Positions 42,266-57,050 of a DNA stretch of 64,000 nucleotides are shown here, in pieces. Origin of the DNA: Armatimonadota bacterium. GTDB lineage: Bacteria > Armatimonadota > HRBIN16. The notes beneath the pieces were generated by a model. It did no database searches. It was given only the letters and a program-made list of their open reading frames with translations, and was not told where the DNA came from. Location: positions 4,800,001 to 4,864,000 of the forward strand of contig OY781964.1 in assembly GCA_963677485.1 (NCBI GenBank), read 5' to 3'. The translations under genes and the position numbers were made by a program. The stretch's first letter is position 1, and every line of letters begins with the position of its first letter.

Positions 42266-42352
42266 GTCGTAGGGGCGCCCCTTGTGGGCGCCCTAATCGT
42301 TGTTCATTCCATAGTTCTTGTTTAGGGCGCCCACAAGGGACGCCCCTACGAC
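42266..42352. repeat. GTAG-family REP doublet (REPIN)
   Basis: gtcgtaggggcgccccttgtgggcgccctaa (42266-42296) and its inverted copy (42322-42352), 30/31 identical, each with an internal palindrome. Confidence 0.85.
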
Positions 42353-42508
42353 GATGAGCTTTGGTAACTCATGTGCGGTCGTAAACGTTGATAACTGACG
42401 TCTTTTCCGTGCAAGTGTAGCAGCACTGTGCGCTTTTATAGTGTCATAAATAAGGCCTTGCGTCAACACGATGTACGATGTCGTTATCACTAGATCATCA
42501 AACAGATC

Positions 42509-42549
42509 GCAAAAGAACACTCCCGATCCACACATACGGGATCGGGAGT
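42509..42549 (-). terminator. Probable terminator of the Spy/CpxP-like gene
   Basis: actcccgatcc/ggatcgggagt 11-bp stem followed on the minus strand by gttctttt. Confidence 0.65.
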
Positions 42550-42609
42550 TCGCATTATCTGATGCTGGCTGCTGTGAAGCTAACGGTAGCAGCTTATGGA
42601 CAGTGGTAA

Positions 42610-43248
42610 CTAGAAGGCAGGCGGACCGTTGCCATCTGGAGGAGGTCCTTGGGGAGGGCCTTGCTGAGCTTGATCTTGATTTTGGTTGTTGTTTTGCTGT
42701 TGATTTTGATTCTGGTTTTGGTTGTTTTGGCCCGGCTTTCGATTCTGTTGGGCCATCATGACTTTCAGTGCAGCGATCTGGTCGACGTTCAATATAGACC
42801 GAATCTTGGTCCACACATCGATACTTGCGGTGATCACGGCTGTTTCAGCCTTCTGAGCCGGAGCCACCAGCTCTTTCACTTTAGCATCATCATAATCGGC
42901 GGCAAGTAGAGCTGCCTGAAGTGCCTGAGCCAGCTTTACGGATTTGGTGGATAGTGCCTTAATGGTCGTGTTTCCGGCTGTGATGACTACTTTCAACTGG
43001 GTGATTTGGGAAGTGGTCAGCTCCAGTTGGTCAGCAAGCCGGTCTACCATCACGGTCGTTGGTGGGGTGACCACAGTCATGACACTGACCTGCATCATTC
43101 CACCCTGTCCATTAGGCCCTCCCGGACCTCCCTGGCCACCTGATCCGCTGCCCTGGCCTCCGTTTCCCTGCTGCGCAAAGCAGCCTGTCGCAAAGAGGCC
43201 AAGCACTGCTGCGGTAACTGCGATTGTTGATGTCTTCATTTCGATCAA
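42610..43248 (-). CDS. Spy/CpxP-like (LTXXQ) periplasmic protein with Gly/Gln/Asn/Pro-rich tails
   Basis: Signal peptide; LELTTSQ and ILNVDQ repeats. Confidence 0.7.
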   Translation of the reverse strand: MIEMKTSTIAVTAAVLGLFATGCFAQQGNGGQGSGSGGQGGPGGPNGQGGMMQVSVMTVVTPPTTVMVDRLADQLELTTSQITQLKVVITAGNTTIKALSTKSVKLAQALQAALLAADYDDAKVKELVAPAQKAETAVITASIDVWTKIRSILNVDQIAALKVMMAQQNRKPGQNNQNQNQNQQQNNNQNQDQAQQGPPQGPPPDGNGPPAF

Positions 43249-43500: not shown

Positions 43501-44385
43501 TTAGCTTTTCGCGGCTGCGGCCATGGCGGCGATATGTGCCGGTGTGGTTCCGCAGCAACCACCGATGATATTGGCACCGGCGTCGATCAACTCCTTAACG
43601 CGGGCGGCCATGTCACTCGGTGTCTCTTTGAACACCGCTTTGCCGTTCTCAAGAACTGGCATACCGGCGTTGGCATGGATCAGGATCGGCGTGTTAGGAG
43701 CAGCCGCTCGCAACTGACGCGTGATCTCTATCATGTTAGCAATGCCGTTACCGCAGTTAGCCCCAACCACGTCAGCACCCGCTTCGATCGCTTCGGTGGC
43801 GGCACGCTCAGGGGTGATACCCATCATCGTGCGGAAACCGCGTGCTCCGGGTTCGAATGTGAAGGTGCAGATAATCGGCAACGTGGTATTGTCTTTGGCA
43901 GCCTTGATGGCTTGCACAGCCTCAGTGACAGATGACATGGTCTCAATGCACAGTGCATCGGCTCCGCCTTCAGCCAGTGCGATCACTTGAGCCTTAAAGG
44001 ACTCATACAGCTGCTCTTCGGTCACATCCCCGCCTTCGTCTTCCACGATCTGGCCGGTGGGACCAACAGAGGCTGCCACATAGCCTTTACCGTCAATGGC
44101 ATCTTTGGCGATGGTCACTGACGCTTTGTTGAACTCGTGGACGCTGTCCACCAGCCCAAACTCCTTCAGCTTGAATGAAGTTCCACCAAACGAGTCGGTC
44201 TCTACGATGTCCGAACCGGCATTGATGTATGCCTCAGCGATGCTCTTCACTTCGTTCGGATGGGAAACACACCAGGACTCCGGGCATTCACCTGGTTTCA
44301 AGCCCATGGCTTGAAGGAACGTGCCCATGGCACCATCGGAAATCAGGATTTCACCTTGAGCGAGACGCTCTAATAGACCCTTCAT
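43501..44385 (-). CDS. Stand-alone homocysteine S-methyltransferase domain (MetH N-terminal type)
   Basis: ISDGAMGT, SVGPTG, IETMS, GANCG and GGCCGT zinc-ligand motifs; no pterin or cobalamin domains. Confidence 0.9.
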   Translation of the reverse strand: MKGLLERLAQGEILISDGAMGTFLQAMGLKPGECPESWCVSHPNEVKSIAEAYINAGSDIVETDSFGGTSFKLKEFGLVDSVHEFNKASVTIAKDAIDGKGYVAASVGPTGQIVEDEGGDVTEEQLYESFKAQVIALAEGGADALCIETMSSVTEAVQAIKAAKDNTTLPIICTFTFEPGARGFRTMMGITPERAATEAIEAGADVVGANCGNGIANMIEITRQLRAAAPNTPILIHANAGMPVLENGKAVFKETPSDMAARVKELIDAGANIIGGCCGTTPAHIAAMAAAAKS

Positions 44386-44416: not shown

Positions 44417-46342
44417 TCATCCGGTGACGGATTCCTGCTCTGATTTCGCTTGTGCCAACCTGTTGGCTACAGTCGGAAATTGAGCAAGGTCGGTGTGGGG
44501 CAAGAACATAGCCCCCAAATAGCTATCCATATAACGTGTGTCGCTGCTCAGATCGATATATGTCATACCGGCTGCGAGCTCTGATAGCTTCTGCCGGTGT
44601 TTACGAGAAAGCAATGCGATGTAGGCACCAGTCAGCGATGAGTTGCCGATATATTTGAACGTGTCGTAGGGAAGGTCAGGCAGCAACCCGATCAAAATCG
44701 CATCGTCGATCTCAATATACCGTCCAAATCCTCCCGCTATGTAGACGCAGGAAAGACTATCCCATCCGATACCCACGCTGGAGATCAACAAAGAGCACGC
44801 CGCATAGATGGCGGCCTTCGTGCGCAGCAGATTGGCGATATCCGGTTCAGTAATGACTAAATCCTGCCCATTGACCGTGTTGGTGCCAAACTCTATGATG
44901 TAACCAGCAATATCGGAATCCGTGCTCCAGCGTCCTGTCGACATCTCTGTGTTGAAGCGGCCAGCCTGGTCGATGACCCCACGCAGCAGCATCTCACCAA
45001 GCAGCGAGATGAGCCCCGATCCACAAATGCCGCTCGGTTTGCCACCGCCCACCACATCGTACTGAAGCTCCGAGCCGTCACTACCGATTGTTACATATTC
45101 GATGGCCCCTTCCATGGCCCGCATACCGCACTTGATGCCTGAGCCCTCAAATGCCGGACCCACGGAACAAGCGCAGGTGACCATCCAACTGGCGTTACCC
45201 AGCACGATTTCGCCATTAGTGCCGATGTCCAAGAACATGAATACATCTTCACTGTTGATGTAGATATCGGTGCAGAGAAGTCCCGATGTGATATCACCGC
45301 CCACATAACTCCCGACGCCCGGGGAGAATTCCACACCAGCCGCAGGATTGATTGATAAACCAACATCGTGTGCCGTGAGCGATGGTATCGAGTTCACAGT
45401 CGGAACGTAAGGTGTCTCCCGTATATGACGAGGCGGTAGAGCCAGCAACAGGTGCATCATCGTGGTATTCCCCGCAATGAAAGCCGCATTGATGCTATCA
45501 GTTGGGATGTTGACACTGGCGGCCATTTCCACAATGAGCGTACTGATCGTGTTGACGATCATATCGCGCAGTTCCGCCAGCCGTTCAGGGCTGCGGGCAT
45601 AGTCGATGCGGCTGATGATGTCGGCACCGCGGCTGATCTGCGCATTGTATGATGATCGGTTGGCCATCACAGTACCATCATGCAGGTTGACAAGTTGAAC
45701 CGCCACAGTGGTCGTACCTACATCAACCGCTAACCCGATGGATACGCCGGTTTGATGCCCGGGATGCACCTCCAAGACACGGCCCGTACCATTGAATTCC
45801 TGAACATCGACGGTAATACGTCCATCATCGCAGCGAAGAGTCTCGGCTAATTTCTGTAGTACACCGGCTCCTGTGGTCAGTGAGACCGAGCCATATGCAC
45901 TCGTCCATTCCCTGACCACCCTTTGCCAGTCAGAATAATGCTCTTCGATAGATGCAGGAGGCACAATGATTGTCTGCGAGCTATATAACGGCGTCAACGC
46001 ATTGGGGTCAGGCAAATAGTCGTCATTGACCAGAAAGTGACTATCGCCCACCACCTGCATTGCCGTTTGGCGCTTTTGAAGAAGCTTAACCGTTAAGTCA
46101 CCCACCACTTTTGTGCGGCAGGCGAGTACCAGCTTTTTATCAGTCTGAACTGAGCCTGCTGTGATGTCATCAGAACCGACGTTTCCTTGGATCACTTCCA
46201 CCAGACAGCGTCCGCAGGTGCCCTTACCTCCGCATGGAAGGTGCAGCTCCTCGATACCGCCTTTGATAGCGGCATCATGGATCAGCGATCCTGGCGCCAC
46301 TTCCACTACAACATCAGACGGCAAGAAACGGACACTTGGCAT
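44417..46342 (-). CDS. acsV: Reductive activator of the corrinoid Fe-S protein (RACo/AcsV; 2Fe-2S plus ASKHA ATPase)
   Basis: CGGKGTCGRC...LAC; DVGTTTV; DIGTNGE; GPAFEG; GICGSG; AGGFG. Confidence 0.9.
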   Translation of the reverse strand: MPSVRFLPSDVVVEVAPGSLIHDAAIKGGIEELHLPCGGKGTCGRCLVEVIQGNVGSDDITAGSVQTDKKLVLACRTKVVGDLTVKLLQKRQTAMQVVGDSHFLVNDDYLPDPNALTPLYSSQTIIVPPASIEEHYSDWQRVVREWTSAYGSVSLTTGAGVLQKLAETLRCDDGRITVDVQEFNGTGRVLEVHPGHQTGVSIGLAVDVGTTTVAVQLVNLHDGTVMANRSSYNAQISRGADIISRIDYARSPERLAELRDMIVNTISTLIVEMAASVNIPTDSINAAFIAGNTTMMHLLLALPPRHIRETPYVPTVNSIPSLTAHDVGLSINPAAGVEFSPGVGSYVGGDITSGLLCTDIYINSEDVFMFLDIGTNGEIVLGNASWMVTCACSVGPAFEGSGIKCGMRAMEGAIEYVTIGSDGSELQYDVVGGGKPSGICGSGLISLLGEMLLRGVIDQAGRFNTEMSTGRWSTDSDIAGYIIEFGTNTVNGQDLVITEPDIANLLRTKAAIYAACSLLISSVGIGWDSLSCVYIAGGFGRYIEIDDAILIGLLPDLPYDTFKYIGNSSLTGAYIALLSRKHRQKLSELAAGMTYIDLSSDTRYMDSYLGAMFLPHTDLAQFPTVANRLAQAKSEQESVTG

Positions 46343-46449: not shown

Positions 46450-47793
46450 TTACCCCGTCGCGAAGACCTTCATGAACGAGCCGATGTCAGACGCCTCTTG
46501 TGGGCCAACGACCACTTCCCAGCCCGGCAGGCAGTCTTCGAGCTCACCACTGATCTGTGATACATAGCCAGGAATGACCAGCTTCCTGGTTTTGACTTGG
46601 TCAGCCAACCCAGATGACTTAATGAAGGTGGCGATCTTTTCGCCAGAGAACTTCCCAGCCGCCCAAGCGGTGAGCACGCTCATACCTTCGCACTCTACGA
46701 CCGCCAGATGGGCCGGCACTCCCGAGTTCTCTATCTCTCCTGAGACCATGAAGTAGGTCAGGGAGAAGTTCGTGGTGACCATCACAGGCGAGTTTTCGTC
46801 GGCTTCACCGATTGGATACACTTTGGGTTCCACTTGAATCGGCTTCTGCGGGTCTGTGAAGATGTTCTGGCGAAGCATCATCAATGGCAGTAGTGCTTCA
46901 TAGGCCATCGTATCGATCACCATGATCGAAGCATACTTACACATCAATGTAGACGCATCCGCAACCATTGATGGGATATCCTGACCCGTGATGAAGTTCA
47001 GAATTGGGAACCCCAACGGTTCGAACGGCACTTTCAATGCAGCCTTTCGGATGATGGTGTTGTTCTGCATTATAGCGGCCGGATTGCTTCCAGGGATGTC
47101 CAAGACGATATCCAGCACACCCAATGCCAGCAGCTTCTTGGTCAAACCGGCCAGTTCATCAAGATTGGCAGCTTTGGCCACGACAGGAGCTTTGTATTTC
47201 AACGCAAGTGCCGCCACTGCGTCTACATTCTCCATGGTGGCCGCGTGAATCAATGGCCGCTGGCCTTCGATCGCAGCAAGAGCTGCCTCCAGGGCAGCCA
47301 CATTGTCACTGCGTAGAATGACACCGCAGCCAGTACCGCCAGATACCGCCTTCACGGCAGCCACGAATGGCTCTACCGCACCCGTCACGTTGTCCACAAG
47401 AGCGAGGTCAAGCCGAAGTTGCTCACCTACCCTCTCTAGGCAGTATTCGCGCACTTCCGCTGTCTTATGAGCCAGATCGGAACCCGACTGGTCATCCGAG
47501 AACGAGATGCAGATGGCGGTCGGATGCACGAATGTCTTTTCATGCCGGAACATCACCGTTTCGTTGCCTACGGCCGTTTCACGCTCCGCAGGGCCGATTT
47601 TCACCAGCCGGATGGGCGGCTTACTGGCCGCCCCGATCTTGGTAATCGCCTCTTCAGATGCATACGGGCAGGCTGCCAGCTCCGCATTTTTTGAAGCCAG
47701 CTTCATAGCGAAGGCCATGCAGGTAGGTACGCCGCACTCACCGCAGTTGGTCTTCGGTAGAAGCTTAAAGATATCCAGTCCAGATAATGCCAT
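46450..47793 (-). CDS. acsC: Corrinoid Fe-S protein large subunit
   Basis: LPKTNCGECGVPTCMAFA...CP, GNETVMFRHEKTF, LRQNIFTDPQKP, TTNFSLTYF, SVLTAWAAGKF. Confidence 0.95.
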   Translation of the reverse strand: MALSGLDIFKLLPKTNCGECGVPTCMAFAMKLASKNAELAACPYASEEAITKIGAASKPPIRLVKIGPAERETAVGNETVMFRHEKTFVHPTAICISFSDDQSGSDLAHKTAEVREYCLERVGEQLRLDLALVDNVTGAVEPFVAAVKAVSGGTGCGVILRSDNVAALEAALAAIEGQRPLIHAATMENVDAVAALALKYKAPVVAKAANLDELAGLTKKLLALGVLDIVLDIPGSNPAAIMQNNTIIRKAALKVPFEPLGFPILNFITGQDIPSMVADASTLMCKYASIMVIDTMAYEALLPLMMLRQNIFTDPQKPIQVEPKVYPIGEADENSPVMVTTNFSLTYFMVSGEIENSGVPAHLAVVECEGMSVLTAWAAGKFSGEKIATFIKSSGLADQVKTRKLVIPGYVSQISGELEDCLPGWEVVVGPQEASDIGSFMKVFATG

Positions 47794-47805
47794 GATTTAG
47801 CTCCT

Positions 47806-50800
47806 TTAGCCCGCGACCCGGGTCATCTCAGCGATCTTGCGTCCAACAGTCTGTGCGGCTGATGGATGATACATGACCAGCATGTCAGCACCAGCATTCA
47901 ACAGGCTCATTGCGGTGGCTATCTCCAGTAATGCACCACGGTCTTGTTCTGGCCCCCATAGAGGGAACGAACTCATAGGTGCTTTGCTTTCCTTAGTTTT
48001 CGCCACTTCGTAGCCTGGTGTCGCCAGAATGGGCATGGCCAGCATGGTGTCGCCTGTGAAGGCCGAAGCGCGGATACGCTCCATGACAGAGTAGGTGTAT
48101 TCCAACCCATATCCAAGCGCACCTGTCAGAGAGTCGATGACGATCTTCTCAGGGGCGAGTCCCATGTTGGTGCAGAGAATGTTGAGCTGCTTGGCCATAT
48201 TGACATCAATCGGTGTCTGAGTGACCACACAATGATCATAGGCCATTGCCGCTGCGGCGATGGTCTTGTAGTTGTCCGTCTCCACCCAGTTCAGCAACAG
48301 GTTTTCGCCCGCATACTTGCTGGCGACTTCTTTCATCACTGCGTTGCACTTTTCGTAGTGGCTTGGGCCGGTCACGATGATCGGCACACCCACTGCCTTC
48401 AGAATACTGCCCACGAACTCAGCGCAAGCTTCAGGAGCCTTGTCACCGTGATCGGGATGGGCGGCATCTAAACGCACACTGATGACCGCAGCGCCCAGCT
48501 TGTCAACACAGTGTTTGGCCATAGCTGCCGGGTCGTCCAACAGTGCTCCGTAGGCGGTGCGCAGACTCTCAGGATAGTTCTTGGGTAGTTTATCAAACAC
48601 TTCCATCGCGATGACGGGTGTCTGACCGATGCTTCCTTCAAAATGTCGGAAGGGCAGCACCGATGCGCCACCAAGAACCACTGAAGAGGTTCGTTTGCCA
48701 CTTCCACCCAAAGTCACCAAGCGGACAGAGACTGATGAACTCTCCGGAGGTATGGAGAAGGTCGTAGGAACCAGGATTGAGGCCGATTCGACTACCCGCG
48801 GTGCGGTCTCCACCTTGACTGGCTCTGCAATAACCTCAACGGCTGGAGCTGCAGGGGCAGTAACTGGAGCCGCAACACTGACCGCCTGCGCGGGGGCAGG
48901 CATGGGGCCGAAAGCTCCGCTGTACATCAGCAGCATGTTGGCACCGGCGGTCAGCAGGTTCAATGCGGTCGATGCCTGTAAGGCCGCCATCTGTTGTTCC
49001 ATGGTTGATTCGGCAGTGGCTACGGGCATGCCCTGCGCTCGCATCTTGTCCAGCACCTGCATCACATAACCAAGACCATCATTCGGCATGGCTGTGACGG
49101 CTGGTGCGGTCGGAGCACTGGCTGCGACAACAGCGACAGGGGCGACAACCTCAGCGACAGGAACCGGAGCTGGTGCCGCTTCTGCAGGCTTCGCATCGAC
49201 TACCGGAGAAGCTTCCACCTTTGGAGCAGGTGCTGCAGCCGGAGCTGGCGTCTCCACGATAAGACCTCGAGCCGCATCGGCTTCTGCCGCCTCAGGCGAA
49301 GCTTGCGTGATGTCCCACATGGTCAGTGCAGGGTGTCCAACCTTCTCCATGTAAGCGGAAATCGCCGCGGTATCCGTGCCCGCGGCGGTCTCATCAGCGA
49401 TCATATCAATGTAGTTTTCGATACCGATTTGCTCACCGATGTGGTTTAGTTCTTCGCGGAGTGTCTCTTTGAGCTCCTTGGGCATCCATACGATACGCTT
49501 ATGACCACCTTCAGAATAGATGAACTTCCGGCTGGAGATATAAGCCTTGCCAACCCCGATGAAACCAGGGGTCTGCTGGCCACCGCCGGTCACACCGGCG
49601 AGCGTAGAGAACTTCATGCCCATCGGTGTTTCGCCAGGATACTCGCGGTTGACAATCGCCACACCGTTGCATTCAGGCAGCATAGCCACGATGGCTTCGA
49701 AACAACCGCAACTGGTCATGGGGTCCTTCAGCATTGAATATGCGTTGAAGGAGCTGATGGTCTGCTTGGAGTTCACATAAACATAGTCGTTGATGTTCTT
49801 CCACTGACCGCGGATGGGGTCGATACACTCACCCTTGACGAGTGGCTGGTTGGGTCCAGTGGGGTCAATTTCAAAGGCGGCCTTGCCATCTAGCCAGTTA
49901 TAGGCACCACATAGGCCCAGTCGTTCGGGAGTGATCACACACACGTGGTTAGGCGCGAAGCTCTGGCAGAGCAGGCACGAGTAGAAGGTATCTACACTCT
50001 CGTCGGTCAGCGATTCGACGCGCAGGTTACGCTCGCGATAGACGCGGCGTGCTTCAGCCAGGCGAGGCTCTACATCATCTTTGCCGGTATACAGGGTGAC
50101 TTGCACCTTGTCGACAATGGCTGGATACTCGCTGAGCAGTTTGGCCCGTACGATTTCGCCCAGGTGCTTGATTTTGAAGCCCTTGGCCTGAGCTCCCTTG
50201 CTGATGCGTACCCAGATGATATCACGCTGGCCCATATGCCAGATGCCTTCGCCGCCGTTGATCAGGTGGTGGATTTGGCGCTCCAAAATCGGCTCAAAGT
50301 CCGACTGCATCTTGCGGCCGGCAACCTCGACCCAGATAGCCAGGGGAAGGGCTGTGCCCTCTGCGACATCGTCTATCTCAGGTCCGACTACGACTATCTT
50401 GCCGTCTTCGACCTCAGATATTTCGCGTGTGGCAACATACTCAAAGGCATGGGTCTTGTTACCGCCGAATTCCACATAGGTTTGCTCTTTGCGGATTCGT
50501 TCGCCTTCAAATGCCGGGCCATATGAAACAGGGATCGGCACTTTGGTGATTTTGATCTTGCAGCCACGGACCTCAAGGGCCTTCTCGACAATCTTGTCTA
50601 GAGGCACATTGGAGACCACGTGCTCATAAGTGCAGATACCCGTGGGCAGGATTTCCGGAATGTCCGTGTCCGCGATGGTTGGGAAGCCGTAGGAGATGGC
50701 CCCCGCAGCCGCTGCATACTTCCCTTCGTCTACCTCGCCAAGTGCGATGACAAATGCGAAAATACGGTTCTTGTTGTATTTCAAGTTTCGCTCGTAGTCA

Positions 50801-51486
50801 CCTGGCTTCACTCCACCAAAAGACAGAGCGGCTCTGTTCGCGAAGCCTAATGCATAGATGGCGGCTGAGATGTCTCTGCCGAACGGAACCAGTCGAGTAT
50901 CCCAGCCCAGCTCTACACCAGCCTCTTCAAGCTGCTCAGAGAAGGTGACACCGTTGGTCTCACCGGCCATGAACACATACAGGTTCTTCTCCTGCAGTTC
51001 ACGGGCGATTTTGACAGCCGTCTCCTTGTCAGGAGCGGCACCCACCACGGCGGCGAAACCTGGTGCAGAGCCGTCCACAAACTCTATACCGCGCTCGCGG
51101 ATGATCACATCACCCGCAGCGCCCAGCCAGATACCATCCACAGGATTGGGCCCGTCCAGATACTTGCAGGCCTCGATCAGCTCAAAAGCGAACAGTGTGG
51201 CCATGCCTCCGTCGAGTGTGGCACCCAGATAAGGCAGCCAGACGTGCTCACCGGGGATGGGCATCAACAGGCTGCGGCATTCATCCAGCACTTCCTGCAT
51301 GTCGCCCAGTTTTTCTACACGAATACCCAAAAGTGAGTTAATCACAGGCAAGGCGTAGGTCGTATCTGGAAAACCGACCTCGCAGTCCACACCGTGAAGT
51401 TCGATGGCCTTAGCCACCATGGCCTCGGTATCCGCGACGATCTTGTGAGCTCCCTTGATCGCAGATGAGGCGATTATCTTACTCAT
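47806..51486 (-). CDS. acsB-acsD: Acetyl-CoA synthase (AcsB, about aa 1-725) fused through an Ala/Pro-rich linker to the CoFeSP small subunit (AcsD, about aa 910-1226)
   Basis: FYSCLLCQSFAPNHVC, GLCGAY, PMTSCGCFE and HPAL (AcsB); GGASVLPF..FEG, IAMEVFD, PIDVNMAKQLN, ALGYGLEYTYSVMERIR, AGADMLVMYHP (AcsD); single uninterrupted ORF. Confidence 0.92.
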   Translation of the reverse strand: MSKIIASSAIKGAHKIVADTEAMVAKAIELHGVDCEVGFPDTTYALPVINSLLGIRVEKLGDMQEVLDECRSLLMPIPGEHVWLPYLGATLDGGMATLFAFELIEACKYLDGPNPVDGIWLGAAGDVIIRERGIEFVDGSAPGFAAVVGAAPDKETAVKIARELQEKNLYVFMAGETNGVTFSEQLEEAGVELGWDTRLVPFGRDISAAIYALGFANRAALSFGGVKPGDYERNLKYNKNRIFAFVIALGEVDEGKYAAAAGAISYGFPTIADTDIPEILPTGICTYEHVVSNVPLDKIVEKALEVRGCKIKITKVPIPVSYGPAFEGERIRKEQTYVEFGGNKTHAFEYVATREISEVEDGKIVVVGPEIDDVAEGTALPLAIWVEVAGRKMQSDFEPILERQIHHLINGGEGIWHMGQRDIIWVRISKGAQAKGFKIKHLGEIVRAKLLSEYPAIVDKVQVTLYTGKDDVEPRLAEARRVYRERNLRVESLTDESVDTFYSCLLCQSFAPNHVCVITPERLGLCGAYNWLDGKAAFEIDPTGPNQPLVKGECIDPIRGQWKNINDYVYVNSKQTISSFNAYSMLKDPMTSCGCFEAIVAMLPECNGVAIVNREYPGETPMGMKFSTLAGVTGGGQQTPGFIGVGKAYISSRKFIYSEGGHKRIVWMPKELKETLREELNHIGEQIGIENYIDMIADETAAGTDTAAISAYMEKVGHPALTMWDITQASPEAAEADAARGLIVETPAPAAAPAPKVEASPVVDAKPAEAAPAPVPVAEVVAPVAVVAASAPTAPAVTAMPNDGLGYVMQVLDKMRAQGMPVATAESTMEQQMAALQASTALNLLTAGANMLLMYSGAFGPMPAPAQAVSVAAPVTAPAAPAVEVIAEPVKVETAPRVVESASILVPTTFSIPPESSSVSVRLVTLGGSGKRTSSVVLGGASVLPFRHFEGSIGQTPVIAMEVFDKLPKNYPESLRTAYGALLDDPAAMAKHCVDKLGAAVISVRLDAAHPDHGDKAPEACAEFVGSILKAVGVPIIVTGPSHYEKCNAVMKEVASKYAGENLLLNWVETDNYKTIAAAAMAYDHCVVTQTPIDVNMAKQLNILCTNMGLAPEKIVIDSLTGALGYGLEYTYSVMERIRASAFTGDTMLAMPILATPGYEVAKTKESKAPMSSFPLWGPEQDRGALLEIATAMSLLNAGADMLVMYHPSAAQTVGRKIAEMTRVAG

Positions 51487-53441
51487 ACCAGTTCCCTCCG
51501 CTCCTTCATATCATAAAGTTTGCGTTCCTTCTTGGCGTTAATCCCAAGGGCGTCGCGCTTACCCTCTATGTGATCAATGATCTTCTGTGCGGCGATGTCG
51601 GGATCTGGCTCCCACTCGAATTTACCGCCGGTGATGTCTGCCATATCTTCGCACAGCAGCTTGGTGACGTTGGCGCTGCCCTCTACATATAGCGGATGGC
51701 CAAGAACGACGTACAGCCCGCTGGCTACGAAGTAACTACCAATCGCAACGGCCTTCTCACTCATCCACTCAGGTGCTGCACCCGCGACTGGCAGGTCGGA
51801 AAGGTCTTCGCCTAAACCACCCTCAAGCAGCACATTGGTGGCAGCCATCAGGATGCGGCTATTGTCAACGCATGAGCCCATATGCAGCACGGGAGGTATA
51901 CCCACCGCCTCGCAGACTTCACGCAGTGAATCGCCCGCATACTGCAGCGCAGCTTCAGGAACCAGAAGTCCCTCTTTGGCGCAGGCGATGGCGGAACAAC
52001 CGGTCTGAAGCACCAGGATGTTCGCCTTGATGAGTGCCTTGGTCATGCGGATATGCGAATCATCTGAGCGCACCTTGGGGTTGCTGCAGCCCACAATGCC
52101 GACCACTCCACGGATACGCCCGTCAATGATCGCGTCATTGAGGGGACGGAAGGTGCTTCGGAAGCGCCCGCCAAGCATCTGGAAGATCGTCTCATTGGAA
52201 AAGCCTGCTACCAGGTCCATCGATTCGGTTGGGATATTGACCCGGGTGGCATCTCGGTTCTCGTAGTTGTCGATGGCCATACGGATCAGCCGGCAGGCGT
52301 GCGCATAGCCTTCTTGAACATCAAACGTGATCTGTTCCGCGTTGAAGGTGTGGGCTATCTCCGATGTGCTGATCAGTTTCGTATGGAAGCACTTAGTGAC
52401 TTCAGGAAGTGAAGGCATGACGCACTGAACATCCACGATCATCATCTCAACGGCACCGGTGACGATGGCCAGCTCTTGCTGCAGGAAGTTACCAGCTATC
52501 GGCAAACCATGGCGCATCAGAACTTCGTTCGCCGTGCAGCAGATACCGGAGATGTTGATGCCGGCGGCACCCTTGCTTTTGGCGTAAGCCAGCAGCTCTT
52601 CATCGATGGACGCGGTGGCGAGCATCTCAGACAGCGTCGGCTCGTGGCCATGCACGATGATATTTACTTTATCATCGGACAGAACACCAAGGTTCACGCG
52701 GCTGCGAATGGGCTTAGGTGTGCCAAACAAGATATCTGACACAGCAGTGGCGATCATCGAGCCCACCCAGCCATCGGCCAGGCTGCACTTCAGGCCACCC
52801 ATGATGAGGTGGTGATAGTCATGATCAACACCCATGTGCGTTCGGTGCATCAGCTCTACCACGGCGGAGTCCACACCATTAGGTGCAATCTCCAGCTTCT
52901 CCCAAAGAGCTTGACGTTTCTCTGGAGCCATCTTAAGAATTTCGTTGGGCTTTTCAGACCAAGCAAACTGAGCCATGAAGAAGTCCGCCAGTTCGCCGGC
53001 GATCTGAAGGTCATCGCGGCCTTCTATCTCCATCTCAAAAAACTGAGCGATCTCGTGCAGTCTGCGGGAATCGGTGATCTTATAGGAGCCACCTTTACCA
53101 GCCACCACACTCTTGAGTGTTCGGACCAGCATACGGCCATGGTCAGAGTGTGCTGCAGTTCCTGCGGCGATTTCACGCAGCAAGTTCCGCGCCGTGATCG
53201 TATCAGCATCGGCTCCGCAAATTCCCTTTGGGGCTTTCGCGGTGATCCGGCATGGTCCCATATGGCACAACCGGCAGCAAACCCCTGTCATGCCGAACTT
53301 GCACTGTGGCTGCTGTGTTTTATATCGATCCCAAACAGTCGATATGCCTCCAACCTGTGCGATGTCGATCATGCGGTTAGTTGCTGAGTCGTGTGAATAT
53401 AAGTTATTGCCTTTTGGTTCGTTCACTTCGGGCATCTTCAA
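51483..53441 (-). CDS. cooS: Anaerobic Ni-CO dehydrogenase catalytic subunit
   Basis: PQCKFG..GVCCRLCHMGPC, HGHEP, GICCTANE, VDVQC, VGCSN, TGCSA, HMGSCVDNSR, EWMSEKA. Confidence 0.96.
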   Translation of the reverse strand: MKMPEVNEPKGNNLYSHDSATNRMIDIAQVGGISTVWDRYKTQQPQCKFGMTGVCCRLCHMGPCRITAKAPKGICGADADTITARNLLREIAAGTAAHSDHGRMLVRTLKSVVAGKGGSYKITDSRRLHEIAQFFEMEIEGRDDLQIAGELADFFMAQFAWSEKPNEILKMAPEKRQALWEKLEIAPNGVDSAVVELMHRTHMGVDHDYHHLIMGGLKCSLADGWVGSMIATAVSDILFGTPKPIRSRVNLGVLSDDKVNIIVHGHEPTLSEMLATASIDEELLAYAKSKGAAGINISGICCTANEVLMRHGLPIAGNFLQQELAIVTGAVEMMIVDVQCVMPSLPEVTKCFHTKLISTSEIAHTFNAEQITFDVQEGYAHACRLIRMAIDNYENRDATRVNIPTESMDLVAGFSNETIFQMLGGRFRSTFRPLNDAIIDGRIRGVVGIVGCSNPKVRSDDSHIRMTKALIKANILVLQTGCSAIACAKEGLLVPEAALQYAGDSLREVCEAVGIPPVLHMGSCVDNSRILMAATNVLLEGGLGEDLSDLPVAGAAPEWMSEKAVAIGSYFVASGLYVVLGHPLYVEGSANVTKLLCEDMADITGGKFEWEPDPDIAAQKIIDHIEGKRDALGINAKKERKLYDMKERRELV

Positions 53442-53584: not shown

Positions 53585-54343
53585 TTATTCGGTCAAGTAT
53601 TGGGAAAGCATTGCTCCGACGGCTTGCCTGGCAGGGGATTCCAAGGGGATATCCACCACTGCCATTCCACCGGCATCCTGGTCGGCAACATTTTGATCAA
53701 CGGGTATGATTGCGATGATGGGCAGGCCAGTCAGCTCTGCCTCTTTTTGCACCATGGGAGGTAGTATACCGTCCGGAACACGGTTGATGATCAGTCCCCT
53801 GTGCTTCACTGGTGTGCCCATCTCGTCGGTCAGTTTTGCGATTGTTCCCGCAGTACGCACCCCACGGACGCTGCAGTCTGTGACGATGCATAACAGGTCA
53901 ACGGTCAGTAGCGTGCGTCGCGCCAGGTGCTCTAAACCGGCTTCGTTGTCTACCACCACATGGCGGTAGTTCTCAGACAGTTTACGTATGACATCACGTA
54001 GCACGTTGTTCGCGAAGCAGTAACAGCCGGGGCCTTCAGGGCGGCCCATGACGATCAAGTCGTAACCGTCCTGCTCTACCATGGCTTCCTGAACGCGTAC
54101 ATCCATGAACTCTTGTTTGGATATACCCGAAAGCTCTTTTGCTTTATGCAGAGCATCTTCGCGGATTCCGCCCACTGTGGCATCGTATGAGACACCGAGA
54201 GCTTCGTGCAGGTTCGCATTGGAATCAGCATCGACTGCCAGCACCGGGGTTTCTCCACGTGCGACCAGCCATTTGATGATCAGGGATGAGAGGGTCGTTT
54301 TACCGACCCCTCCCTTCCCGGTGATGGCGATGGTTAGTTTCAT
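53585..54343 (-). CDS. cooC: CODH/ACS nickel-insertion ATPase (CooC/AcsF)
   Basis: GKGGVGKT, DAD.NANL, GPGCYC, DNEAGLEH. Confidence 0.92.
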   Translation of the reverse strand: MKLTIAITGKGGVGKTTLSSLIIKWLVARGETPVLAVDADSNANLHEALGVSYDATVGGIREDALHKAKELSGISKQEFMDVRVQEAMVEQDGYDLIVMGRPEGPGCYCFANNVLRDVIRKLSENYRHVVVDNEAGLEHLARRTLLTVDLLCIVTDCSVRGVRTAGTIAKLTDEMGTPVKHRGLIINRVPDGILPPMVQKEAELTGLPIIAIIPVDQNVADQDAGGMAVVDIPLESPARQAVGAMLSQYLTE

Positions 54344-54358
54344 TCAGCCTTCCGTATT

Positions 54359-55411
54359 CTACGCAAGCCGTGCCTGGAGTGCAGCACTGGTCTTACCGAG
54401 AAGATCGAATACCAGCTCTGCATCAGCTACAGGCAAGGAGCCAGTGCCGCAAGACGGGGTGATCATTGCCTGATTCAGGATCAGCTCACGGGATATGCCC
54501 GCTGCTTTTGCTAGGTTATCTACACCTTCGTCAAACTTCGCCACGAGGCTCTCAACTGTCTGGGCTTGTATCTTGGCACTGTTGGTAGGAACCACGCCCC
54601 ACGCCAACACCTTACCGGCTTCCAGGTGGACCTTTACAGCTTGTGGGTATAACGCGATGGTGTCAGCAAACTCAAATGCATCGAAGTTCACCACATCCAC
54701 ACCGGCATCCATGAGGATAGACCATTCCGTGTTTCCGCAGCAGTGAACACCGGCAAGCGCACCCTCGGCGTGAACGGCATCCACTACCTCGGCCAGTTTT
54801 TCCACTACGTCTTCACGGCTCACGCTCACATATGTGGATGATCCGAATGCAGATAGAATGGGCTCATCAATGAAGCAGATGATCTTTTCGGCAAACTGTT
54901 TGAACTTGCGGATCTGCCAGCGGCACTTCATGGCGAGCGCTTTGACCACCACATCGATGAACTCAGCGTTGTAATAGATCGCTCGTTTGTTCTCATCGAC
55001 GATGGTCAGGCCGAAGCTGATGGGCCCTGTGGTCTGCACTTTCATAATCGGGCGCACTCCACCCTCAGCCTGCAGAGCAGCTTCCATGGCGAAAATGCCT
55101 TTGGAAAATTCCGGGGTAATCTGGAAATAGTCGTAGTTCTCCATGAGATAGTTCTCATAGAAATTCGCCAGATCCATCGAGTAGTCTCCCGTCGTATCAA
55201 AATACATGCGTCCTTTGACGCGGTCAATGACCACGCGGGGCATTCCTTCGGAATACTGCATCTCCATCTGTTCGTTCATGCCATTTGCGGGCAACTGTGG
55301 CCAGATAGGAGCGACAGGAATGCTATTCAATATCACTTTCACAGCATCAGCAGCATTGGCATGCGGCAGACTTCCTATTGCTGTGGCAATACATTTGGGT
55401 GAGAAGCTCAT
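54359..55411 (-). CDS. Core (MetE C-terminal-only, MesB-like) methionine synthase
   Basis: TAIGSLPH, WPQLP, KVQTTGP, IDEP, zinc ligands GVHCCG and TPSCG; no folate-binding N-terminal half; start ATG 55411 with RBS ggagg. Confidence 0.8.
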   Translation of the reverse strand: MSFSPKCIATAIGSLPHANAADAVKVILNSIPVAPIWPQLPANGMNEQMEMQYSEGMPRVVIDRVKGRMYFDTTGDYSMDLANFYENYLMENYDYFQITPEFSKGIFAMEAALQAEGGVRPIMKVQTTGPISFGLTIVDENKRAIYYNAEFIDVVVKALAMKCRWQIRKFKQFAEKIICFIDEPILSAFGSSTYVSVSREDVVEKLAEVVDAVHAEGALAGVHCCGNTEWSILMDAGVDVVNFDAFEFADTIALYPQAVKVHLEAGKVLAWGVVPTNSAKIQAQTVESLVAKFDEGVDNLAKAAGISRELILNQAMITPSCGTGSLPVADAELVFDLLGKTSAALQARLA

Positions 55412-55438
55412 GATGTATCCTCCGTCGGTATTCAATGT

Positions 55439-56455: not shown

Positions 56456-56695
56456 CTAGTCGGTTTCTTTCATCTGGCCCAGTTGAGCCAGACACTCTTC
56501 CGCGTGCTTGCACCAGGCAGCACAAGCCATATTGTTCCGCGGATTCACCACACAGTGACTGCAGTGAGGACAGCTACGCCGCAGGTCATCCTTATAGAAC
56601 TCAATGGGCTGACCACAGTGAACACACGGCAACTCGTAGATGTCTTCATGTGTCCAGTAGCGCAAATCTTGACCGGGGCAGTTCGCAGGTGCCAT
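56456..56695 (-). CDS. Small Cys-rich zinc-ribbon-like protein (79 aa)
   Basis: CPGQD, CVHCG, CPHC, CAAWC....C; RBS aggag before ATG 56695. Confidence 0.7.
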   Translation of the reverse strand: MAPANCPGQDLRYWTHEDIYELPCVHCGQPIEFYKDDLRRSCPHCSHCVVNPRNNMACAAWCKHAEECLAQLGQMKETD

Positions 56696-57050
56696 GGCAC
56701 TCTCCTGACAATAGCGATTCAGAGAGGAAATACGCCGCGGCGCTTCTCTTAATGTACATATTACCTTAGTAGATTTGGATGTGTATTTCAAATACAGCAT
56801 ACTTTAAGTGCTCATTATGGTAATATCGTGCTCCTAACAGCATTTATCGCTAAATGGCCGTTGTTGGTCGGCCCCCTACTCACTCGGCTGCTTCGTTGCA
56901 GCTATCCGTGCCACTAGTTCATTTCGCAGAAGCATGAAGTCGGTTGGTTTCCAGTCCATGTCCACATGGGGGCATTTCTTCACGTACGATGCGGCCCGCC
57001 GACTCATGAGGTGCGCTCAAGATCATAACTGAGAGTGGATCCTACCGAAT

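Follow-up and report, generated by a model that had tools for sequence, protein, structure and literature searches.

In the last step of the Wood-Ljungdahl pathway, a corrinoid protein shuttles between a methyltransferase and acetyl-CoA synthase (ACS). To our knowledge, structural work views the bacterial corrinoid iron-sulfur protein (CoFeSP) as a free, transient partner of ACS and acetyl-CoA decarbonylase/synthase (ACDS) of archaea as the sole scaffolded form. A gene of an Armatimonadota bacterium raises the question of whether a bacterial CoFeSP may be tethered as well, and by what kind of chain. In a stretch of 64,000 nucleotides of this genome (contig OY781964.1, positions 4,800,001 to 4,864,000; the whole stretch is called the window below) a single open reading frame (ORF) joins ACS, the product of acsB, to the small subunit of CoFeSP, the product of acsD. 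This gene is written acsB::acsD; all coordinates are window positions, and all cassette features lie on the minus (-) strand.

We consider it probable that acsB::acsD is a selected fusion that tethers CoFeSP to ACS, that the folded island in its linker derives from AcsD, and that the gene travels between phyla in a cassette of seven genes. Among the natural forms of this textbook enzyme system the fusion is genuine and occurs often, being common in uncultured bacteria. The new details are an island that is a relic of AcsD preserved by selection, and the place of the fusion in a conserved seven-gene cassette.

The fused gene and the support for its open frame

The ORF of acsB::acsD (47806..51486) starts with ATG and runs through 1226 codons with zero internal stops; its 1226-residue product (131.0 kDa) was assigned from the translation and from family matches. 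Pfam places CODH_A_N at residues 22-110, CdhC at 318-472, ACS_CODH_B_C at 483-724 and CdhD at 930-1159. The AcsB part, residues 1-726 (49309..51486), has the A1, A2 and A3 domains (matches to NF040764, PF18537, PF03598 and PF19436), and the NCBIfam equivalog NF040764 covers residues 10-726 with 1066 bits against a cut-off of 800, which identifies the part as AcsB. The N-terminal A1 domain of AcsB is the one that binds carbon monoxide dehydrogenase (CODH); it is seen here as PF18537 (90.8 bits), with cooS, the CODH gene, adjacent. A motif scan of the translation found all ligands of the A-cluster: the [4Fe-4S] cysteines C504, C507, C516 and C526 (49909..49977) and the nickel site Cys593-Gly-Cys595 (49702..49710), invariant across 106 aligned homologs. 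Their roles, cubane and Cys-Gly-Cys nickel, we take to be those of the Moorella enzyme.

The AcsD part, residues 913-1226 (47809..48750), is the CoFeSP small subunit, a TIM barrel. The delta-subunit model NF003376 aligns with residues 913-1222 over model positions 6-312 of 313 (358.7 bits, cut-off 280), and small subunits in PDB match with E-values from 1.5e-80 to 1.4e-57 (E 1.5e-80 for residues 13-315 of 4djd_D; 2h9a_B, 4c1n_B and 9fzy_E match too). The acetogen-type WLP_AcsD model NF040759 gave 256.9 bits, under its cut-off of 430; by these model scores the part is a delta subunit outside the narrow acetogen-type AcsD subfamily. No solved PDB chain matches the linker between the two enzymes.

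An earlier note on this DNA, made from its letters, had read the ORF as a complete AcsB with A-cluster motifs followed by a complete AcsD in 1226 residues, and Pfam, NCBIfam and the motif scan bear this out. The boundaries that it noted, with the end of AcsB close to 49312 and the start of AcsD close to 48760 (residues ~725 and ~909), agree with the model matches. Its linker of ~185 residues, two Ala/Pro/Val-rich arms around a helical island, was recovered at 186 residues by composition and by AlphaFold2. It had also stated that no separate acsD occurs and that acsC follows after 12 nt, and the coordinates and a scan of the whole genome agree. The host genome is a single contig of 5.22 Mb, 97.4% complete, where the CdhD family matches AcsC and the fused gene only and the CdhC family the fused gene only. 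Since these scans match nothing else, the complete genome has no other acsD or ACS. The acsB start overlaps the cooS stop as ATGA, and the 12-nt gap between acsB::acsD and acsC carries an AAGGAG ribosome site. Ahead of the AcsD part, no start codon in frame is paired with a convincing ribosome site.

Could the fusion nevertheless be an artefact of assembly or sequencing, or reflect a stop codon lost recently, in an organism that really makes two proteins? Such an explanation is close to refuted. A database search with residues 700-1226 as the query scored 8000 candidates and left 648 protein clusters at E<=0.001. The domain architecture was checked in the 120 matches listed, all of which have an ACS domain and a CdhD domain in one chain; 105 of them are 1150-1350 residues long and the other 15 are 680-1149. 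Furthermore, we took 55 related loci, many of which break off where a contig ends, from species-representative genomes. In 40 of the 55, a single open frame contains the A-cluster motif, the end of AcsB and AcsD; among the rest, one frame is cut upstream, 11 loci have an AcsD frame without the AcsB end, two begin at the edge of a contig and one lacks AcsD. The 11 loci that place AcsD in a frame apart from the AcsB end are what speaks for an artefact. They come mostly from long-read metagenome bins, with the island in yet another frame; L051 looks like a carrier of a truly separate acsD. Against an artefact stand the frame kept open in 40 loci and in 105 full-length database proteins, a linker of 145-301 residues throughout with a conserved island, and the missing start signal for acsD.

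In L023, L028, L033, L034, L043, L045, L047-L049 and L052-L054, mostly long-read metagenome bins, the fused gene is broken into several frames. These breaks are probably homopolymer indel errors rather than pseudogenes.

Two more lines of evidence argue against an artefact. Logan contigs of four runs (two studies) over 47700-51600 had 0 differing letters and 0 indels; in two of the four runs one contig of 27,124 bases spans the whole stretch. The ratio of nonsynonymous to synonymous substitution rates (dN/dS), taken against a congener (L001, dS ~0.65), was 0.017 for AcsB and 0.044 for AcsD; within the linker it was 0.093 for arm 1, 0.086 for arm 2 and 0.050 for the island. The claim of the earlier note that this is not a simple lost stop codon is thus upheld by the open frame shared with relatives and by dN/dS below 0.1 in each segment. 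On the strength of these frames and rates, the fusion is genuine and under selection.

The share of sampled words present in runs X6-X12, two RNA runs among them, was only 5-8%. In run X2, a second contig (1877 bases, depth 2.3) falls at 50096-50415, where it matches short stretches flanking a diverged 274-base span; it probably belongs to a related strain or species of the same sample.

The linker and the origin of its island

The linker consists of three parts. The junction and arm 1 (residues 727-800, 49087..49308) and arm 2 (863-912, 48751..48900) are Ala/Pro/Val-rich and predicted to be disordered, as judged from composition, from the predicted local distance difference test (pLDDT) and from the homolog alignment. 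Between them lies the conserved island (801-862, 48901..49086) with two predicted helices, delimited by identity, hhalign with a shuffle control, and pLDDT. Residues 741-800 and 861-900 of the arms are each 85% A+P+V+T+E with zero aromatics, and residues 801-860 have an ordinary composition. In an AlphaFold2 model of residues 27-1226, built with 106 sequences, the arms have pLDDT ~30, and the island helices, 804-818 and 829-856, have pLDDT ~67-78. By composition and pLDDT, disordered Ala/Pro-rich arms flank a small folded module, as in the tethers of 2-oxoacid dehydrogenase E2 subunits.

Conservation follows the same division. Across the 106 homologs the arms are 30-32% identical to the window, with gaps at 23-26% (arm 1: 30% and 26%), and the length of the linker, 186 residues here, varies from 145 to 301 with a median of 188.5. 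The identity of ten-residue blocks is 0.12-0.39 in the arms; in the island, blocks over 831-860 reach 0.84, 0.84 and 0.75, the values for AcsB and AcsD being 0.80 and 0.73. An alignment of the island in 39 sequences from the loci has 12 invariant positions, hydrophobic ones and polar Q, S, T, N and G among them. The core motif of the island was found in 100 of the 106 homologs.

Where does the island come from? Compared by BLASTP with the five proteins of the operon, it matched the AcsD part only (E 1e-5), the match being split into two co-linear segments. Of the two island helices, the first corresponds to the AcsD helix that follows barrel strand 6 and the second to helix 7 plus strand 8, with ~27 residues deleted between them; the counterpart in AcsD is residues ~1127-1206. 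In hhalign the island matched the AcsD profile over 52 columns with 95.7% probability (E 1e-8, score 52.8); AcsB gave 0.3%, 100 column shuffles had a mean score of 13.1 (SD 3.0, maximum 23.3) and the reversed island scored 26.6. Among 1.84 billion representative proteins, the island profile matched the C-terminus of an AcsD fragment (E 1.2e-4), and the motif is also visible in the Moorella small subunit when aligned to PDB chains. By reason of these comparisons and their controls, the island is a condensed partial duplicate of the C-terminal third of the AcsD barrel, under strong selection.

The same profile search gave 21 matches at E<=0.001, all 78-618 residues long and forming no stand-alone class; the five that were inspected are fragments of the fused family, one of them an AcsD fragment. 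Neither the island nor the linker alone matched any NCBIfam model at E<=10, and a protein atlas look-up with residues 796-866 gave no usable match.

A link of the island to the N-terminal oligomerising helix of archaeal CdhD was considered as well and gained no support: the island profile matched no archaeal-length CdhD at its N-terminus among the 1.84 billion proteins. The sole hint of an archaeal link is the archaeal-length model NF003375, which aligns over 808-1221 with 248.5 bits, under its cut-off of 488. The interpretation offered in the earlier note stands in part. What holds is a genuine fusion under selection, whose linker has the make-up and the predicted disorder expected of a flexible tether, with a folded island inside it; no likeness in sequence of the island to the archaeal helix was found.

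The chain might also be cut in the linker, or be started internally as well, in which case the fusion would do no more than ensure that AcsB and AcsD are made in equal amounts, and would provide no permanent tether. Ala/Pro-rich linkers of other multidomain enzymes are sensitive to proteases. Mere co-translation, however, leaves unexplained an island as conserved as the enzymes themselves; the arms are under purifying selection, and no ribosome site with a start codon stands ahead of the AcsD part. We regard this explanation as very improbable.

The cassette, its distribution and its methyl source

Twelve nucleotides downstream of the fused gene lies acsC, the CoFeSP large subunit gene (46450..47793; NF003195, 557 bits against a cut-off of 306; PF04060 and PF03599), followed by a gene for a RACo/AcsV-like reductive activator of CoFeSP (44417..46342; PF14574, PF17651, PF17650 and PF00111; NF040756 at 605 bits, under its cut-off of 800). 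Upstream, cooS/acsA (51483..53441) codes for the Ni-CODH (TIGR01702, 698 bits, cut-off 478), and a gene for a CooC-like P-loop ATPase (53585..54343; PF01656/PF13614), whose role may be nickel insertion, precedes it.

Two genes that look like zinc thiol-methyltransferases bracket the cassette and accompany the fusion from phylum to phylum. The first cassette gene (54359..55435) codes for a MetE-like protein of 358 residues with a weak match to NF002119 (E 1.6e-7), no Pfam match, and a His-Cys...Asp...Cys pattern in its translation; it could be a core methionine synthase of the MesB type, drawing on CoFeSP, a type described in the available part of Price et al. 2021 (PMC7857596). The last (43501..44385) codes for a homocysteine S-methyltransferase-domain protein (PF02574, 240.5 bits) that retains Cys and Cys-Cys motifs. 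The order kept is MetE-like, cooC, cooS, acsB::acsD, acsC, RACo, homocysteine methyltransferase-like; of the 55 loci, 49 have RACo, 45 have cooS, 42 have cooC, 41 have the MetE-like gene and 39 have the PF02574 gene.

Beside the cassette, at 42293-43248 (-) and 56456-56800 (-), lie three ORFs of 173, 212 and 114 residues, the first two overlapping, none with a Pfam or NCBIfam match. For the 114-residue one, tblastn gave weak matches, all of them in the two Phycisphaerae loci.

By record titles, the 55 loci belong to Armatimonadota, Acidobacteriota, Planctomycetota/Phycisphaerae, Fibrobacterota and NC10/Methylomirabilales. Within the phylum of the window, 58 of 301 sampled genomes have a CdhC match: 18 with an open frame of 1129-1351 residues, 33 with one of 726-784 residues (at least one of these, in G250, being cut by a contig end) and seven in which the frame is short or broken. 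In six unfused clusters of the same phylum (L060-L065), identity to the window is 52-59% for AcsB and 39-47% for AcsD; neither the MetE-like nor the PF02574 gene was found in the 15 kb fetched around them. By comparison, a fused cluster from another family of the phylum (L066) has 78% identity in AcsB and 72% in AcsD, and the Acidobacteriota loci have 76-78% in AcsB. Among fused AcsB proteins of Acidobacteriota, Fibrobacterota, Phycisphaerae and Armatimonadota, identity is 68-88%. Since fused clusters from different phyla resemble each other more than they resemble unfused clusters of the same phylum, these identities suggest that the fused cassette is one lineage that moved laterally, as a whole, across phyla.

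What supplies the methyl group? No AcsE-type methyltransferase above the NF005719 cut-off was found in the window's genome (G000) or in G141, the other complete genome of the genus. The best NF005719 match in G000 (173.9 bits) is the pterin domain of MetH, and the sole other pterin-binding match there is DHPS. An AcsE-type match elsewhere in the genome was seen in nine of ten other fused-frame genomes tested; all five unfused genomes carry two such matches, and an AcsE-type pterin-binding gene lies inside the cluster in four of five unfused same-phylum clusters inspected. Among the fused-frame genomes tested, AcsE thus appears to be missing in the window's genus (G000 and G141) and not in fusions generally. 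The broader notion that fused cassettes dispense with AcsE is ruled out by the nine genomes that have a match.

At another place in the window's genome (L059, G000:C1:1175500-1183500) we observed a split methionine synthase locus, with a 345-residue protein carrying a homocysteine-binding domain, an 840-residue MetH without that domain, and a 610-residue bifunctional homocysteine S-methyltransferase/methylenetetrahydrofolate reductase.

Proposed tethering, possible roles of the island and known systems

How would the fused enzyme work? CoFeSP is a heterodimer of AcsC and AcsD, with the corrinoid between the barrel of the small subunit and AcsC's C-terminal domain (PMC6257451, accessible part). 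By analogy, AcsC would pair with the AcsD part of the fused chain and the corrinoid would be capped in the same manner, so that CoFeSP would be tethered to ACS; CODH (CooS) would bind the A1 domain of AcsB. The methyl carrier would stay near its acceptor and be made in fixed stoichiometry with it. The disordered Ala/Pro/Val-rich arms, one of ~60 residues and the other of ~40, would form the tether together with the island of two helices (~55 residues) that lies between them, and the ~100 disordered residues would let the corrinoid domain visit the methyltransferase and the activator. According to the available text of 10.1101/2024.08.05.606187, the small subunit docks on domains A1 and A3 of ACS in the Clostridium autoethanogenum complex, and an AlphaFold3 model of the Carboxydothermus complex has the beta subunit on ACS's N-terminal domain (PMC12289521, seen in part). 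As the small subunit docks on A1 and A3 in solved unfused complexes, it would be a natural anchoring partner when fused.

Several observations weigh against a selected tether with an AcsD-derived island. Any kinetic gain from tethering is something that we infer, the fusion being known from sequence alone; since only the genes were seen, cleavage after translation is compatible with the data. Frames of unfused length occur in 33 of the 58 ACS-bearing genomes of the phylum, and function therefore does not depend on the fusion. The four runs that agree with the window may include the sample from which the genome originated and are thus not fully independent. The AlphaFold2 model is of moderate quality (mean pLDDT 70.6; predicted template modelling score, pTM, 0.47). 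The island is also dispensable in some lineages: its motif is missing in six of the 106 aligned homologs; two Acidobacteriaceae bins (L037 and L046) have a fused gene with a linker of ~115 residues and no island, and Fibrobacterota L041 and L042 and Phycisphaerae L044 and L050 are fused but have other helical segments in the linker. Searched against the island and AcsD profiles, the linkers of L041, L042, L044, L050 and L037 gave nothing significant (best E 0.005). Judged from these alignments, the island is common, not universal, among fusions.

As for its role, one could speculate that the island is a hub that gathers several CODH/ACS-CoFeSP units by oligomerisation, as the N-terminal helix of CdhD does in archaeal ACDS. 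Its position between flexible arms leading to ACS and to CoFeSP has the hub geometry of ACDS as presented in the accessible portion of 10.64898/2026.07.07.736967, and the predicted helix-loop-helix has invariant hydrophobic positions. Homology to archaeal CdhD, on the other hand, went undetected in the profile and NCBIfam searches, and inspection of the island reveals no clear heptad pattern. According to the accessible portion of that same source, bacterial CoFeSP is not known to oligomerise, and bacterial AcsD does not conserve the N-terminal region. Complex prediction with four copies of the island gave a median score of 0.36 against a mark of 0.42, controls scoring 0.00-0.11, a result that speaks neither way on self-association. 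A hub is, in our estimate, unlikely. We find it rather more doubtful still that a fused enzyme whose island is a hub for assembly or docking would make a covalent bacterial analogue of ACDS, within a self-contained cassette that would move methyl groups between acetyl-CoA and thiols (homocysteine or other) at the tethered CoFeSP, and would do so in this AcsE-less genus without a folate-linked methyltransferase.

A docking role for the island is a tentative possibility. Its partner could be AcsE or one of the cassette proteins, whether RACo, the MetE-like protein or the homocysteine methyltransferase-like one, and it would then resemble the peripheral-subunit-binding domain that 2-oxoacid dehydrogenase E2 has between its Ala/Pro arms; or it could mimic an AcsD surface as an intramolecular regulator, competing with AcsD for AcsC, ACS or the corrinoid domain. 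The island retains sequence features of the AcsD segment, and this segment sits in a barrel whose C-terminal face covers the corrinoid (PMC6257451, same part). Invariant polar residues (Q, S, T, N and G) would fit a specific interface, and the cassette partners co-occur with the island. Yet L046, having lost the island, keeps the MetE-like gene and RACo in the stretch fetched; L037 is island-free as well, on a contig of 4.7 kb that is too short to judge its neighbours. The island would seem to be a docking or assembly element rather than a mere spacer, which we say with lower confidence than we have in the tethering fusion as such.

The earlier note had allowed that the architecture might be already common and described. 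Common it is; a full-text literature search, with supplements outside its reach, found no published description of an AcsB-AcsD fusion. In the text of 10.1101/2025.09.14.676152 the words fusion, fused, AcsD and CdhD do not occur at all, and the available parts of PMC12289521, PMC12296737, PMC5736913 and PMC7857596 do not describe such a fusion. A natural tethered version offers a way to test the limits that diffusion and docking set on acetyl-CoA synthesis; it could help to trap the methyl-transfer complex for structures and serve as a model for designing fused enzymes in gas fermentation. The island, a small testable target, would make the linker more than a spacer. The cassette is found in Acidobacteriota, Armatimonadota and Planctomycetota of peat and soil, settings where acetogenesis counts in carbon turnover.

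Among known systems, the closest are the CODH/ACS of Moorella thermoacetica, Carboxydothermus hydrogenoformans and Clostridium autoethanogenum, which have the same four proteins and cofactor motifs; AcsC, CooS and RACo adjoin the fused gene here. In these bacteria CoFeSP is separate, whereas in the window AcsB and AcsD form one chain through 186 residues, with no free acsD; also, the window cluster has no acsE and is flanked by the two thiol-methyltransferase-like genes. The E2 subunits of 2-oxoacid dehydrogenases share the extended Ala/Pro-rich arms around a small folded module. The likeness is one of description, with no sequence relation, and in contrast to E2 the fused protein has no lipoyl or other carrier domain, the carried cofactor residing on AcsC. 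With archaeal ACDS and its CdhD, as far as the accessible sources describe them, the fused enzyme shares a helix-bearing element in a disordered Ala/Pro-rich stretch just N-terminal to the small-subunit barrel, as well as the idea that flexible threads concentrate ACS and CoFeSP locally. It differs from ACDS in that the thread is covalently joined to a bacterial-type AcsB with an A1 domain, and in that the island derives from the barrel of AcsD itself.

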